Shown here: positions 5,064 to 21,253 of the stretch, one piece after another | How the letters are laid out: the number at the start of each line of letters is the position of its first letter | How positions within the stretch are numbered: the first letter of the stretch is position 1 | Source: Candidatus Cloacimonadota bacterium | Lineage (GTDB): Bacteria; Cloacimonadota; Cloacimonadia; JGIOTU-2 | DNA: 32,299 nt | Direction: 5' to 3' | NCBI GenBank assembly: GCA_049903315.1 | Contig: JBNGBT010000016.1 | Coordinates: 1 to 32,299, forward strand | Notes under the pieces: model-generated | Told to the model about the DNA's origin: nothing | Database searches by the model: none | The model's input: only the letters and a program-made list of their open reading frames with translations | Program-made: the position numbers and the translations under genes

Positions 5064-5140
<77 letters not shown>

Positions 5141-5155
5141 TTTTTTTGAATTCGC

Positions 5156-5232
5156 GGCGATGTAGCTCAGCTGGTTAGAGCATCGGAATCATAATCCGAG
5201 TGTCCGGGGTTCAAGTCCCTGCATCGCTACCA
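5156..5232 (+). tRNA. tRNA-Met (elongator, anticodon CAT)
   Basis: GGCGATG/CATCGCT acceptor stem, anticodon arm TCGGA-ATCATAA-TCCGA and encoded CCA. Met rather than Ile2 is inferred from the GGC start and loop sequence. Confidence 0.88.
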
Positions 5233-5238
5233 TTTTTT

Positions 5239-5262
5239 GCTGCCGATAAGGCAGTTTTTTTT
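5239..5262 (+). terminator. Intrinsic terminator between tRNA-Met and tRNA-Arg
   Basis: GCTGCC-GATAA-GGCAGT hairpin running into a T8 tract. Confidence 0.6.
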
Positions 5263-5268
5263 GCATGT

Positions 5269-5345
5269 GCGCCAGTAGCTCAGCAGGATAGAGCAACAGC
5301 CTTCTAAGCTGTGGGTCAGAGGTTCGAATCCTCTCTGGCGTACCA
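5269..5345 (+). tRNA. tRNA-Arg (anticodon TCT)
   Basis: GCGCCAG/CTGGCGT acceptor stem, anticodon arm ACAGC-CTTCTAA-GCTGT, TTCGAAT T-loop and encoded CCA. Confidence 0.95.
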
Positions 5346-16316: not shown

Positions 16317-16381
16317 GCATGTTGTACTTGCTCTTTGGAAATTCTTGACACAATACAGGTAGGCGAAATTTTTCTGAATTT

Positions 16382-16447
16382 ATGATAAAGGATATAGAAA
16401 AAATCATCGGTATTATAATCATTAATGCGTCGCCCTACCGGTTCTGA
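16382..16447 (+). CDS. Ile-rich leader peptide, duplicate copy (MIKDIEKIIGIIIINASPYRF)
   Basis: Intact ATG-to-TGA frame with all 8 Ile codons retained, followed by the antiterminator and terminator. Confidence 0.7.
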   Translation: MIKDIEKIIGIIIINASPYRF

Positions 16448-16461
16448 CAAAATTTCTGTCG

Positions 16462-16495
16462 AGCCGCGACAGGGGTAACCTGTGGCGGTTTTTTT
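16462..16495 (+). terminator. Attenuator terminator, copy 1
   Basis: AGCCGC-G-ACAGG-GGTAA-CCTGT-G-GCGGTT hairpin with a T7 tract. Confidence 0.8.
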
Positions 16496-16525
16496 ATATC
16501 TTAAATAAATTATAAGGATTATACT

Positions 16526-16630
16526 ATGTTCAGAAAGATCGACGTGAAAGCAAAACCGGCAGAGTTTGAAAAGCCAGTTCACGCATTCTATATGCTCTCT
16601 ATAAGTAAATCCAGGCAACCTGCCGCTTAA
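16526..16630 (+). pseudogene. ileS: Truncated ileS 5' fragment (17 aa identical to IleRS, then unrelated sequence to a stop after 34 aa)
   Basis: Translates as MFRKIDVKAKPAEFEKP-VHAFYMLSISKSRQPAA*. Confidence 0.85.
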
Positions 16631-16680
16631 GAATTGGAGGTAACAGATTGGGAATAAAATCAAATTATAGGAGAATATAA

Positions 16681-17823
16681 ATGAAAAAAAACATTTTAAG
16701 TAACATTACATTATTTGTTTGTATCTGTATTATTTCAACAGGAATAGTTCTTTTAACGAATGGATGTTGCAAAAAGGCAACCGGACCCGATACTCAGGAT
16801 AGTACGTTTGCTGAGAAAGTAGAAAAAATACTCAACGACAAATTAGCTTTGTGTGAAGTTAACGGAGTCACCGTATTTGTCAGGAACAATGATGGTGAGA
16901 TATGCAACATTGGAGCCGGGCTGGCAGATGTTGAAAACGACATTCCAATGCTTGCAGACACCAAAATGCGGATCGCCAGCATTTCTAAAACCTTTCTTGC
17001 GACTGTTGTTCTACAACTCTGGGAAGAGGGCTTGCTTGATATTGATCATTTGATGAGCCAATATCTTCCTGATTCCACTGTTGCGTTGTTTCCTTATGGA
17101 GATCAGGTCACTTTAAGACAGCTATTAAACCATACAAGTGGAATTTATGATTTTGAAGATGATAATTTTCTATATAATTTAATGGTAGATCCTCTTTATC
17201 ATTGGACTCCGAACGAGCTTCTGGAGTATGCCGTAAATTCTCCATCGAGCGTACACAACGAACCCGGGACGCTATTCAGTTATTCGAACACGAATTATAT
17301 TCTTCTCGGGCTGATCGTTGAATCTGTCACTGGCATCAGCATGGAGCAGAATATAAGGGATAGGATACTTGATCCGCTTAACCTGGAAAACACGTATTCG
17401 GGCAACGAAGGGATACCACAAGATAACTATTCAAAAGGATACCAGCCGCTCGATGAAACCACGATCTATGTTGTGTCAGACCAGACGCTTCCGCTTTATT
17501 TTGAGTGGGCACATGGCCAAATGGTATCAACCACGGAAGACCTGTGGAGCTTCCTGAATGCTCTTTCCTCTGGCGAACTCTTCTCACAAGAGGCAACACT
17601 AAATGCGATGCTTGCTTTTACTCCTATCTCGAATTTTTCATATGGGCTTGGAATACTCAACTTTGGTGAAGAGATTGGATTTGGTCATACCGGAGGGACA
17701 CTTGGCTTTTTTTCTTATGCGATGATTAATCCCACGATCGGTACAGCCCTGATCTTAATATATAATACTTATAACACTGAATTCATGGGGGCTGCCGCTA
17801 ATGCAATTTTTGGAATTATGTAA
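16681..17823 (+). CDS. Serine hydrolase of the beta-lactamase/DD-peptidase family, probable lipoprotein
   Basis: SxxK ('SISK'), YxN ('YSNTNY') and HTG motifs, 'LRQLLNHTSG', and a lipobox-like 'LTNGC'. AGGAG RBS. Confidence 0.9.
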   Translation: MKKNILSNITLFVCICIISTGIVLLTNGCCKKATGPDTQDSTFAEKVEKILNDKLALCEVNGVTVFVRNNDGEICNIGAGLADVENDIPMLADTKMRIASISKTFLATVVLQLWEEGLLDIDHLMSQYLPDSTVALFPYGDQVTLRQLLNHTSGIYDFEDDNFLYNLMVDPLYHWTPNELLEYAVNSPSSVHNEPGTLFSYSNTNYILLGLIVESVTGISMEQNIRDRILDPLNLENTYSGNEGIPQDNYSKGYQPLDETTIYVVSDQTLPLYFEWAHGQMVSTTEDLWSFLNALSSGELFSQEATLNAMLAFTPISNFSYGLGILNFGEEIGFGHTGGTLGFFSYAMINPTIGTALILIYNTYNTEFMGAAANAIFGIM

Positions 17824-17899
17824 TAATTTCCGAGAAATGTAATTTATTTATTCATACCGGGCAAATAGAAAGAATTTATACATAAGTGAGCTCTATCTC

Positions 17900-17926
17900 A
17901 GGCGAGAATGAGCGTTCTCGCCTTTT
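17900..17926 (+). terminator. Intrinsic terminator of the serine hydrolase gene
   Basis: AGGCGAGAAT-GAGC-GTTCTCGCCT hairpin followed by TTTGTGT. Confidence 0.7.
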
Positions 17927-17943
17927 GTGTACTTTGGAAATTC

Positions 17944-17972
17944 TTGACACAATACAGGTAGACGAAATTTTT
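17944..17972 (+). promoter_or_regulatory. Putative ileS promoter (consensus -35 TTGACA, weak AT-rich -10)
   Basis: TTGACA at 17944-17949, conserved in repeat copy 1 (16345-16350). The predicted start site falls near the leader ATG at 17981. Confidence 0.55.
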
Positions 17973-17980
17973 CTGAACTT

Positions 17981-18046
17981 ATGATAAAGGATATAGAAAA
18001 AATCATCGTTATTATAATCATTAATGCACCGCCCTGCCGGTTCTGA
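17981..18046 (+). CDS. ileS attenuator leader peptide (MIKDIEKIIVIIIINAPPCRF)
   Basis: 8 of 21 codons are Ile, including the run ATC ATC GTT ATT ATA ATC ATT. It lies directly upstream of ileS and its stop codon sits inside the antiterminator 5' strand. Confidence 0.85.
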   Translation: MIKDIEKIIVIIIINAPPCRF

Positions 18047-18094
18047 CAAAATTTCTGTCGAGCCGCGACGGGGTAACCTGTGGCGGTTTTTTTT
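18032..18094 (+). promoter_or_regulatory. Transcription attenuator: antiterminator (18032-18073) mutually exclusive with terminator (18061-18094)
   Basis: Antiterminator: CGGTTC-T-GACA pairs with TGTC-GAGCCG, extended by CCCTG/CGGGG. Terminator: AGCCGC-G-ACGGG-GTAA-CCTGT-G-GCGGTT with a T8 tract. Confidence 0.85.
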
Positions 18095-18124
18095 ATATTT
18101 TAAATAAATTATAAGGATTTTACT

Positions 18125-21100
18125 ATGTTCAGAAAGATCGACGTGAAAGCAAAACCGGCTGAGTTTGAAAAGCCAATTCGCGATTACTGGAAGCAGCACA
18201 ACATTCCACAAAAAAGCGAAGATTTCCGCGATAGCGCACCGAAATTTATTTTTTACGAAGGGCCTCCTACCGCAAACGGCATGCCCGGTATTCATCACGC
18301 AATGAGCAGAACACTCAAGGATGTGGTATGTCGTTATAAAACCATGCAGGGCTTTCAGGTGCGCAGGAAAGCCGGGTGGGACACACACGGACTGCCAGTC
18401 GAGATAGAGGTGCAGAAACAACTTGGTTTTTCAGTTAAAAAAGAGATCGAGGAATACGGTATAGAGAAATTCAATAAGAAATGCAGGGAATCGGTCTTTA
18501 CGTATGAAAAAGAATGGCGGGAGATGACGAATCTCCTGGGCTATTGGCTCGATCTGGACGATCCTTATATCACCCTTACGAATGACTACATCGAAACTGT
18601 GTGGTGGATACTCAATCAATATTGGAAGAAGGATATGATCTATATTGATAAAAAGATCGTTCCCTTCTGTCCGAGCTGCGGCACCCCGCTTTCTGACCAT
18701 GAAGTGGCATTGGGTTATAGGGAAGTCGAGGATCCATCAGTATATATACGCTTCAAGGTCAAAAATGAGGAAAACACCTATTTTCTTGCGTGGACAACCA
18801 CACCCTGGACGCTTATATCAAACGTTGCACTCGTCGTTCATCCTGATCATGAGTATGTGAAAGTAAAGACCGGAGATGAATATCTTATATTAGCAAAAGC
18901 CCGGCTCGATGTCCTCAAAGAGAGCTATGAAATAGTTGAAAAGTACAAAGGCAGAGATCTCGAATACAAGGAATACGAACAGCTCTTCCCGTTTATCAAG
19001 CCCGAGGAAAAAGCATTCTATGTGGCGCTTGGAGATTATGTTACCCTTGAAGACGGGACGGGGATCGTGCACACGGCACCCGCATTTGGAGAAGAAGACT
19101 TTGCAATCGGCAAGGAGTACGATCTTCCCTTTATGCGACCGGTCGACGAAGAGGGCAAATTCACTGAAGAGATCACGGATTGGGCTGGCGAGTTCATCAA
19201 AGATGCGGACAAAGGCATTATAAAAGATCTCAATATGAGAGGAATGCTCTATAACCGCACACAGATCAAACACACCTATCCCTTCTGCTGGCGCTGCGAC
19301 AGCCCGCTTATCTATTTTGCACGCAAGTCCTGGTACATCAGAACAACCGCATACAACGATAAAATGATCGAGAATAATAAAAAGATCGCCTGGTATCCTT
19401 CCTATGTTGGGGAAGGCAGATTCGGAGATTGGCTTGAGAATAATAGAGATTGGGCGATAAGCAGAGACCGGTACTGGGGCACTCCGCTCAATATCTGGAT
19501 CTGTGAGAAGTGCGGACATCAATTTTCTCCTGATTCAATAAAAGAACTTCGGGAGAAGGGCACGCTTGCAGATGGCACACCCGTTCCGGACGACATCGAG
19601 CTTCACAGACCATATGTGGATGATGTCGTATTTACATGCCAGGAATGCAAGAGCACCATGCGCAGAACTCCAGAGGTTTTAGATTGCTGGTTTGATTCGG
19701 GATCAATGCCCTTCGGGCAATGGCACTATCCTTTTGAAAATGAGGATATCTTTGACAAGGAACTCTTCCCCGCAGACTTCATAGCAGAAGGTATTGATCA
19801 GACAAGAGGGTGGTTCTATACCATGCTGGCGATTTCAACTTTTATAAAAGGGGAGTCGTCATATAAGAGCTGCCTGGTGAACGAAATGGTTCTGGACAAA
19901 CACGGCAAAAAGATGAGTAAGTCCAAAGGAAATGCCGTTGATGTGTTTAAAATTTTGGAGAAATACGGCGCTGACGCCACCCGGTGGTATATGCTTTCTA
20001 CAAGTCCCCCGTGGCTTCCTACACGCTTTGACGAAGAGGGGGTGCTGGAAGTGAATAATAAATTCATCGGCACGCTGAAAAACGTGGCATCCTTCCTTGC
20101 AACCTATGGCAATATTGATAATTTTGAATATAAGGAATATTCTATAAAAATAGAGCAACGTCCCGAACTGGACAAGTGGATAATTTCCCGTTTGAATTCT
20201 GTGATAAAGAAAGTTCGAGAGTTCAATGAAAAATATGATCTCACCCGTGCTGTACGCCTGTTACAATCCTTTGTGATCAACGATGTGAGCAACTGGTATG
20301 TGCGCCGCATCCGAAAACGCGTGTGGGCATCCGGTATGGAAGATGATAAAATTGAAGCATATATGACCCTCTATGAAGTCTTACTGACGATCTCAAAATT
20401 ATGCGCTCCCTACACGCCGTATATTTCTGAGGAGATATATCAATCGCTGACTGATAAGGAAAGTGTGCATCTGGAAAATTATCCGGAATATGATGAAGAT
20501 TTGATGCTGCCGGAACTCGAGAATGAGATGCAAAATATAATCGACATTGTCTCTCTGGCACGTGCTGCAAGAAACGAAGTGCAGATAAAGATACGCCAGC
20601 CGTTGCGAACCCTCTTCGTCCCCGAAGAAATGAAAGATGTCGTTGAACGGATGAAACCTCTGATAATCGAAGAGATTAACATCCATGATATAGAATTTGT
20701 AAGAGATAACACTCGTTTTATGGATTACAGTGTTAAACCGGATTATAAAGTGCTGGGACCCACATACGGCAAACATATGTCACACATTGCGCAAGCGCTT
20801 CAAAATATGGGCGCAAACCACCTCATTGATGTCCTGAACAAAGATGGTGTCTATCATCTTGATGTTGATACTGTTGAGGTGAAGCTGACAAAAGAAAGTC
20901 TGCAAATCGATACTCAAAATAAAGAAGGTTTTGTGTATGGTGAAGATGCCGATGTTTTTGTTGCGCTGGACACCCGGATAGATGAAGAACTCCTGCTTGA
21001 AGGGAATGCCCGTGAGCTGGTGAACAAGATTCAGTTTATGAGAAAAGAAGAAGACTTCGATATTATGGACAGGATAATTATTTCTTTCTTTACTGAATCC

Positions 21101-21253
21101 GATGATATCAAGGAAACCTTCGAGAAGTTTACCAACTATATCAGAAAAGAAACCCTGGCACTTGAAATTGTTGAAGTAGAAAGCTCAGAAAACTTGAAAA
21201 GCTGGGACGTGAATGGAAAAGAGGTCTTCCTTCAGGTAAGAACTAAAAAATAA
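18125..21253 (+). CDS. ileS: Isoleucine--tRNA ligase, type 2 (IleRS2)
   Basis: 'EGPPTANGMPGIHH', 'GWDTHGLP', 'WTTTPWTL', 'DWAISRDRYWG', 'EGIDQTRGWF' and 'KMSKS'. It is 1042 aa with an IleRS2-type C-terminus lacking the type-1 zinc finger. Confidence 0.98.
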   Translation: MFRKIDVKAKPAEFEKPIRDYWKQHNIPQKSEDFRDSAPKFIFYEGPPTANGMPGIHHAMSRTLKDVVCRYKTMQGFQVRRKAGWDTHGLPVEIEVQKQLGFSVKKEIEEYGIEKFNKKCRESVFTYEKEWREMTNLLGYWLDLDDPYITLTNDYIETVWWILNQYWKKDMIYIDKKIVPFCPSCGTPLSDHEVALGYREVEDPSVYIRFKVKNEENTYFLAWTTTPWTLISNVALVVHPDHEYVKVKTGDEYLILAKARLDVLKESYEIVEKYKGRDLEYKEYEQLFPFIKPEEKAFYVALGDYVTLEDGTGIVHTAPAFGEEDFAIGKEYDLPFMRPVDEEGKFTEEITDWAGEFIKDADKGIIKDLNMRGMLYNRTQIKHTYPFCWRCDSPLIYFARKSWYIRTTAYNDKMIENNKKIAWYPSYVGEGRFGDWLENNRDWAISRDRYWGTPLNIWICEKCGHQFSPDSIKELREKGTLADGTPVPDDIELHRPYVDDVVFTCQECKSTMRRTPEVLDCWFDSGSMPFGQWHYPFENEDIFDKELFPADFIAEGIDQTRGWFYTMLAISTFIKGESSYKSCLVNEMVLDKHGKKMSKSKGNAVDVFKILEKYGADATRWYMLSTSPPWLPTRFDEEGVLEVNNKFIGTLKNVASFLATYGNIDNFEYKEYSIKIEQRPELDKWIISRLNSVIKKVREFNEKYDLTRAVRLLQSFVINDVSNWYVRRIRKRVWASGMEDDKIEAYMTLYEVLLTISKLCAPYTPYISEEIYQSLTDKESVHLENYPEYDEDLMLPELENEMQNIIDIVSLARAARNEVQIKIRQPLRTLFVPEEMKDVVERMKPLIIEEINIHDIEFVRDNTRFMDYSVKPDYKVLGPTYGKHMSHIAQALQNMGANHLIDVLNKDGVYHLDVDTVEVKLTKESLQIDTQNKEGFVYGEDADVFVALDTRIDEELLLEGNARELVNKIQFMRKEEDFDIMDRIIISFFTESDDIKETFEKFTNYIRKETLALEIVEVESSENLKSWDVNGKEVFLQVRTKK

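Follow-up and report, generated by a model that had tools for sequence, protein, structure and literature searches.

An isoleucine-rich leader ORF and a predicted transcription attenuator upstream of ileS in Cloacimonadota

Classical leader-peptide attenuation has been described in detail (PMC1183508), and pheST is listed among the leader-peptide attenuators (PMC1262725). A Streptomyces trpS2 attenuator appears as a candidate in the latter source (PMC1262725), while His leaders are placed before hisS paralogues in bacilli (PMC2965389). For ileS, the control described in Firmicutes and Actinobacteria is by T-box riboswitches (PMC1262725; bioRxiv 10.1101/2022.02.09.479832). Table S0 of PMC2965389 assigns a T-box to 40 of 58 ileS candidates, and none of the 30 ileS rows of its Table S8 is annotated as a leader peptide, some being unannotated or marked as sORF. 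Our literature search, which had most subscription journals outside its reach, found no ileS leader peptide and no Cloacimonadota attenuator. A later experimental paper on the Streptomyces trpS2 attenuator reportedly exists. The trp and his leaders are subject to super-attenuation when the leader is untranslated. The mechanism considered here is thus classic and not new; its target gene and lineage were not found in print, although this does not establish their absence from it.

We analyzed a window of 32,299 nucleotides, the whole stretch of DNA considered here, from a Cloacimonadota genome of 2.96 Mb that is 96% complete. Its ileS gene (18125-21253, on the forward strand like every feature below) is very probably governed by a ribosome-mediated transcription attenuator, predicted from sequence and folding models, that would set IleRS synthesis by the supply of Ile-tRNA. 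The region resembles E. coli pheM-pheST and the trp, his, thr, leu and ilv leaders in having a short leader rich in cognate codons, then a competing antiterminator and intrinsic terminator; as at pheM-pheST, an aminoacyl-tRNA synthetase is predicted to be controlled by its own charged tRNA. It differs from pheM-pheST and the classical leaders in its target (ileS), its phylum (Cloacimonadota), its lack of an Rfam match and a leader ORF that is probably leaderless, and from trp and his in that no 1:2 protector helix is predicted in the genus, where the untranslated RNA is predicted to read through. Like the Streptomyces trpS2 and bacilli hisS leaders, it would place a synthetase gene under a leader peptide outside Proteobacteria, where relatives have other sensors; those leaders, however, serve auxiliary or paralogous genes, whereas the sole ileS is the target here. 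With the ileS T-boxes it shares the gene, the signal (uncharged versus charged tRNA-Ile) and, for those of Firmicutes, the terminator/antiterminator output, but the proposed sensor is the ribosome and a T-box was not found here. An earlier note on this DNA had likened the layout to the trp/his/thr/ilv/pheST attenuators, and the same arrangement of leader, antiterminator and terminator emerged from our analysis: the window contains an Ile-rich ORF, an amino acid matching ileS, a predicted terminator and a mutually exclusive antiterminator.

The leader ORF, MIKDIEKIIVIIIINAPPCRF (17981-18046), comprises 21 codons, eight of which encode Ile (3 ATA, 3 ATC, 2 ATT), with six in a seven-codon control run (18002-18022) that is conserved in the genus leaders; the ORF, its eight Ile codons and the run are present as the earlier note claimed. 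A short ORF with six Ile in seven codons arose in 1 of 5000 dinucleotide shuffles of 17944-18124, and with Ile use of 9% in the genome, the binomial probability of six Ile in a given seven-codon window is 3e-6. A genome-wide scan of 440 predicted terminators, with 289 short ORFs next to them, found six Ile in nine codons only in this leader and its duplicate, described below. Ile occupies codons 9, 11, 12, 13 and 14 in all nine genus leaders of 21 codons, with synonymous Ile changes at codons 5, 8, 9, 11 and 13. Every leader contains at least one ATA codon, and tilS is present in the genome. The earlier note was right that all three Ile codons are used, but its suggestion that both tRNA-Ile species could be sensed gains little special support, since ATA makes up 34% of the Ile codons in the leaders (41 of 119) and 27% of those in long ORFs of the genome; dual sensing as a design feature is possible and is not singled out by these data.

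Beyond the Ile run lies the 5' arm of the antiterminator (18028-18048), made up of outer (ACCGCC/GCCCTG), core (CGGTTC) and inner (GACA) segments and spanning the leader's Pro-Pro codons and stop codon. Its 3' arm (18056-18074) doubles from 18061 as the terminator 5' arm and loop. The core elements begin at 18038 (CGGTTC) and 18060 (GAGCCG), the inner ones at 18045 (GACA) and 18056 (TGTC), and CCCTG at 18032 faces CGGGG at 18069; the full antiterminator includes GCCCTG:CGGGGT pairing. An extra pairing, absent from the earlier note, can join ACCGCC (18028-33) to GGCGGT (18082-87), engaging the terminator 3' arm. The predicted intrinsic terminator (18061-18094) has a stem from 18061/62 to 18086, a GTAA loop and a T8 tract (18087-18094) ending 30 nt ahead of the ileS ATG. 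The stop-codon-containing hairpin at 18038-18065, the GTAA-capped terminator, the T8 tract and the 30-nt gap are all in the sequence as the earlier note described them. In the window, the antiterminator is predicted at -23.0 versus -18.4 kcal/mol for the terminator, and a fold as good as the antiterminator arose in 2 of 300 shuffles of the upstream sequence. The Shine-Dalgarno-like AAGGA of ileS (18113-18117) lies outside the switch.

When a ribosome is masked onto the window's RNA, the predicted probability of the terminator stays at 0.01-0.02 while the A site is at any of Ile8-Ile11. It is 0.01-0.14 at Ile12 and 0.12-0.5 at the final Ile of the run, and reaches 1.00 from Pro17 or Pro18 on, an outcome that is stable for footprints of 10-17 nt and from 4 to 37 C. 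The earlier note had proposed a check by forced single-strand folding; in our ribosome-masked folding the switch occurs at the right codon. A stalled ribosome does free the antiterminator in these models, as that note supposed. Freeing 18038 onward is however insufficient, the outer helix from 18032 being needed: the terminator is still the minimum-energy fold when 17973-18037, close to what that note proposed, is kept single-stranded, whereas the antiterminator wins when only 17973-18031 is so constrained. Stalling must therefore leave nucleotides 18028-18036 uncovered, and the codons where it is effective are Ile8-Ile12. Likewise, a ribosome at the stop codon is predicted to permit termination, but the transition falls earlier than had been thought, with termination already predicted at Pro17.

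We propose that RNA polymerase initiates at the leader ATG or slightly ahead of it, with the ribosome following behind. Were charged tRNA-Ile scarce, the ribosome would wait on Ile8-Ile13 and leave 18028-18048 free to pair with 18056-18074, holding the terminator 5' arm and allowing read-through into ileS. Were Ile-tRNA ample, the ribosome would reach Pro17 and the stop codon and cover or unwind the antiterminator arm, upon which the terminator would form and transcription would end at about 18090-18094. The naked RNA of the window's genus (g1) is predicted to fold into the antiterminator, and the 1:2 protector helix is not predicted there (a 1:2-like helix is predicted in genomes G015, G017 and G018). 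Since untranslated RNA of the genus is predicted to read through and to lack such a helix, translation would be needed for switch-off, and the models predict that the untranslated state is ON in the window's genus. A pause hairpin coupling ribosome and polymerase was not identified in the leader. Contigs of two RNA runs (X19, X20) derive from relatives and leave the leader uncovered.

A switch of this kind might instead read general ribosome speed, or pausing at Pro-Pro or Pro-stop, with the Ile codons an AT-rich by-product. The leaders are indeed AT-rich, those of genus g6 carry only five scattered Ile, and Pro recurs near the end of the peptide (PP in g1 and g5, NP-stop in g2 and g3, YP-stop in G019). 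The CCC codons, however, constitute the outer antiterminator arm, and a ribosome resting on them is predicted to terminate rather than to read through. Furthermore, Ile is kept via synonymous changes and is rarely swapped for other AT-rich codons in g1, the leader amino acid fits the downstream gene, and valS and leuS are without such a leader. We accordingly regard a general-speed or Pro sensor as quite improbable beside an Ile-sensing attenuator. No other convincing amino-acid attenuator was found in the window's genome among the 440 terminators scanned, nor by eye upstream of eight other synthetase genes found by motif.

The predicted promoter (17944-17972) has a perfect -35 box, TTGACA (17944-17949), and a poor -10 box at about 17967-17972, the start site itself being a prediction; a consensus promoter scan did not call it. 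TTGACA lies upstream of 18/18 homologous leaders, and 16 of the 17 spacer columns vary among nine genus leaders. Genome-wide, TTGACA promoters occur without a clear TATAAT-type -10 consensus. The ATGs of long ORFs in the genome peak 28-30 nt after YTTGACA (19/241), with another peak at 52, and the nearer peak suggests that some mRNAs of this genome are leaderless. No Shine-Dalgarno sequence precedes the window's leader ORF, which is probably read from a leaderless or almost leaderless transcript. In 13 of the 18 homologues the ATG falls 29-31 nt past TTGACA; in the remaining five it falls 40-52 nt past it and is accompanied by Shine-Dalgarno-like purines, a pattern from which we infer that the leader is leaderless or near-leaderless in four genera and Shine-Dalgarno-led in two. 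In the comparison of homologues the leader frame is kept with synonymous changes, and the ATG stands at the distance expected for the start site.

The lack of a Shine-Dalgarno sequence before 13 of the 18 leaders would also suit an untranslated leader, in which binding of IleRS itself, or of uncharged tRNA in the manner of a divergent T-box, decides between the folds, or which carries a fixed, leaky terminator. The predicted read-through of naked g1 RNA fits this too, and divergent T-boxes are reported to be able to escape Rfam (PMC5314783). Yet an ATG-started open frame is found in 18/18 homologues, the G004 leader is shortened in frame by 12 nt, and Shine-Dalgarno-like sequences appear just where the ATG is 40-52 nt from the -35 box. 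Moreover, the leader is only about 115 nt long. The T-box model (RF00230) finds no match in the window, nor at E up to 10 on 17830-18200, which is consistent with the earlier note's view that this is not a T-box; it matches in none of 21 family genomes, compared with 5 of 14 known genomes used as a control. We thus consider an untranslated leader very improbable and retain the translated Ile leader. A known Rfam amino-acid leader (Thr, Leu, Phe, His, Trp) was likewise rejected, no leader family being among the matches up to E = 10.

To place the element phylogenetically, the region upstream of ileS was compared in 78 genomes of the class, 18 from the window's family (f1) and 60 from other families. 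Every one of the 18 family genomes that include the 5' end of ileS, from six genera, carries a terminator and an Ile leader. The leaders contain 3-8 Ile, with at least four in nine codons in 17 of 18, and examples include MKIIIKIIIIRNP, MKINIIIIIIFNP, MKVQIGIIIIIFPPCRARQN and MKVNIKIGLIFIGIFNL. The weakest is MKTNKFLAETEVIII, whose terminal TEVIII recurs in metagenome locus L161; the G013 leader ends in three Ile, as does that of L161. The family consensus is an ATG-started Ile leader with a terminator of the form RCCGYRRYRGG-loop-CYTRTKGCGG-T6-8. The earlier note had named the conservation of an Ile-rich uORF in relatives as a check, and the uORF, the terminator and their spacing are all kept across the six genera. 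Terminator and Ile leader occur together in none of the 58 evaluable genomes of other families, a count from which L154 (start not found) and L136 (start unreliable) were dropped and in which three genomes have less than 320 nt upstream of ileS. Where these genomes were read, ileS sits close behind another gene or has a promoter that leaves no space for a leader. A covariance model built from the 18 homologues matched 0/130 genomes of other families, and it matched six metagenome loci outside its training set among 27 loci searched (L031-L041 were not taken as independent, being apparently the same assemblies as family genomes).

The distance from the last Ile codon to the antiterminator CGG core, the partner of the terminator's CCG, is the strongest comparative signal: 15 nt in ten genomes, 13 in two, 12 in five and 9 in one. 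A distance of 12-15 nt is approximately one ribosome half-footprint. Leader length (13-21 codons) and the stop codon (from 18 nt inside the core to 6 nt before it) are variable. This also bears on whether the ORF is a separate gene for a small hydrophobic peptide, with its own terminator, that merely adjoins ileS. The peptide does have a short hydrophobic core, and a Pfam scan of it gave no match. However, peptide sequence and length diverge between genera while the RNA spacing persists, the 30 nt that separate the terminator from ileS show no sign of a second promoter, and leader and ileS remain together among relatives whose upstream neighbors change. An independent peptide gene is thus extremely improbable. 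In three loci of genera g3 and g6 (L011, L012, L014) the gap from terminator to ileS is 115-252 nt and includes imperfect palindromes of some length (ACCACGA...TCGTGGT-like), resembling inserted repeats. In a quick IleRS tree, the IleRS of G021 (L018, family f2) is nested inside f1, and its gene has a promoter 63 nt ahead of ileS and no leader; this position would possibly mean one loss of the attenuator.

Covariation lends modest support to the competing helices. The antiterminator is 77% paired, against 34-49% in slid controls, with two-sided changes at 6 of 15 pairs, and the terminator is paired in 94.9% of cells over the 18 homologues, with one two-sided change; these counts are overstated, because the core hardly varies, the genomes share ancestry and two rows are displaced by one column in the MAFFT alignment. 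The antiterminator folds better than shuffles (at most 2/300) in 13 of 18 homologues, and five do not beat them (29-136/300). Equilibrium folding gives a clear switch in 11 of 18 homologues, a partial one in G019 and none in the other six (G012, G013, G014, G015, G017 and G018). In these six the terminator wins at every ribosome position, and an antiterminator is predicted solely for nascent RNA from which the terminator 3' arm has yet to emerge. These six would therefore need kinetic antitermination, by whichever helix forms first. G014 has only three core pairs, and G017 has a mismatch within the core.

The earlier note does not mention that the promoter, leader and terminator are duplicated together with the first ~18 ileS codons. 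This duplicate lies at 16333-16583, ahead of a serine hydrolase gene, and is 94.8% identical over 252 nt. The duplicate leader, MIKDIEKIIGIIIINASPYRF (16382-16447), is followed by a terminator T tract from 16489 and a truncated ileS start (16526-16630) of 34 codons, ~18 of them ileS-like. The hydrolase, of the PF00144 beta-lactamase family (16681-17823), lies between the two copies, with a terminator-like hairpin past it at 17900-17923. An assembly artefact was rejected because public DNA contigs (runs X12 and X6) span 16531-18066 without differences and run from copy 1 through the hydrolase into copy 2; X6 carries a flag as a possible source, which X12 does not. Only the window's genome, of 21 in the family, has the second copy, and a search for copies of the RNA before other genes gave only two weak matches (E 0.012 and 0.046). 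In the duplicate, changed Pro-Pro-Cys codons weaken the outer helix, and even when the ribosome stalls the predicted probability of the terminator is ~0.45. Relatives have different genes upstream of ileS, which marks this as a variable site. The duplicate may be a decaying by-product of an insertion, or the hydrolase may now be under partial Ile control.

More distant ileS genes offer a broader view. Many more distant IleRS2 loci (L047-L049, L071 and several of L170-L221) have a terminator with a T-box-like GGTGG motif, by pattern match only, and related ileS genes elsewhere thus appear to use T-boxes. At L185 (positions 2311-2483 of FWPV01001389.1), a 35-codon Ile-rich ORF, MNQGFILSIIGLQISIFYIIIIFLLQTIVGNKTSS, precedes a distant ileS (57% identity); there a GTGGGC can pair with the terminator 5' arm, and the family RNA model finds no match. 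The sequence of L185 suggests a probable independent Ile attenuator, unrelated in sequence to that of the family.

The ileS gene at 18125 is the sole copy in its genome (TIGR00392 score of 1000 bits against a cut-off of 621), and none of the 18 family genomes that carry ileS has more than one copy. Its product is of the IleRS2 type and is 91% identical to the IleRS of Ca. Celaenobacter antarcticus. The signature motif HXGH is replaced near residue 56 by GIHH (GXHH), and G[IV]HH occurs in 30/30 Cloacimonadota IleRS examined; the best NCBIfam score is for MupB, under the MupB cut-off. The GXHH motif in IleRS has been reported to lead to mupirocin hyper-resistance (bioRxiv 10.1101/2023.01.31.526100), and such resistance is predicted from the motif throughout the class. 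Mupirocin would probably fail on the native GIHH enzyme and be usable only in a host with a sensitive IleRS. As to the tRNAs, tRNA-Ile(GAT) and tRNA-Ala(TGC) are not in the assembly, probably reflecting an unassembled rRNA operon. The genome has three CAT tRNAs, one of which should be the lysidine tRNA-Ile2, tilS being present; two CAT-anticodon tRNAs cluster with tRNA-Arg(TCT) at 5064-5345 of the window, and the tRNA list also includes tRNA-Sec and a tRNA called Leu(AAG).

The metabolic context suggests why ileS might be a point of control. No ilvC scored above cut-off in 21 family genomes, and neither ilvD nor ilvB was found in the window's genome. From these missing genes, in genomes that are incomplete, the family probably takes up isoleucine. 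With genes for Ile biosynthesis not found in these genomes, the synthetase would be the point where charging can be adjusted. A wider reading, which we advance tentatively and consider rather doubtful, gives this attenuator a separate origin and a minimal design. A leaderless Ile mini-gene at the first bases of the transcript would drive a switch of two helices without a protector, ON by default, and termination would require the ribosome to get past the Ile run. Together with L185, it would make ileS a repeated target of new leader-peptide sensors in organisms without T-boxes and unable to make isoleucine, with the duplicate a switch lent to the serine hydrolase.

Overall, this predicted attenuator would give the essential gene ileS, whose control is described with T-boxes in the published sources cited above, a second, ribosome-based solution. 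The element is self-contained within ~115 nt and comes in 18 natural variants, both leaderless and Shine-Dalgarno-led, which together offer a way to explore if attenuation can operate when no protector helix is present.
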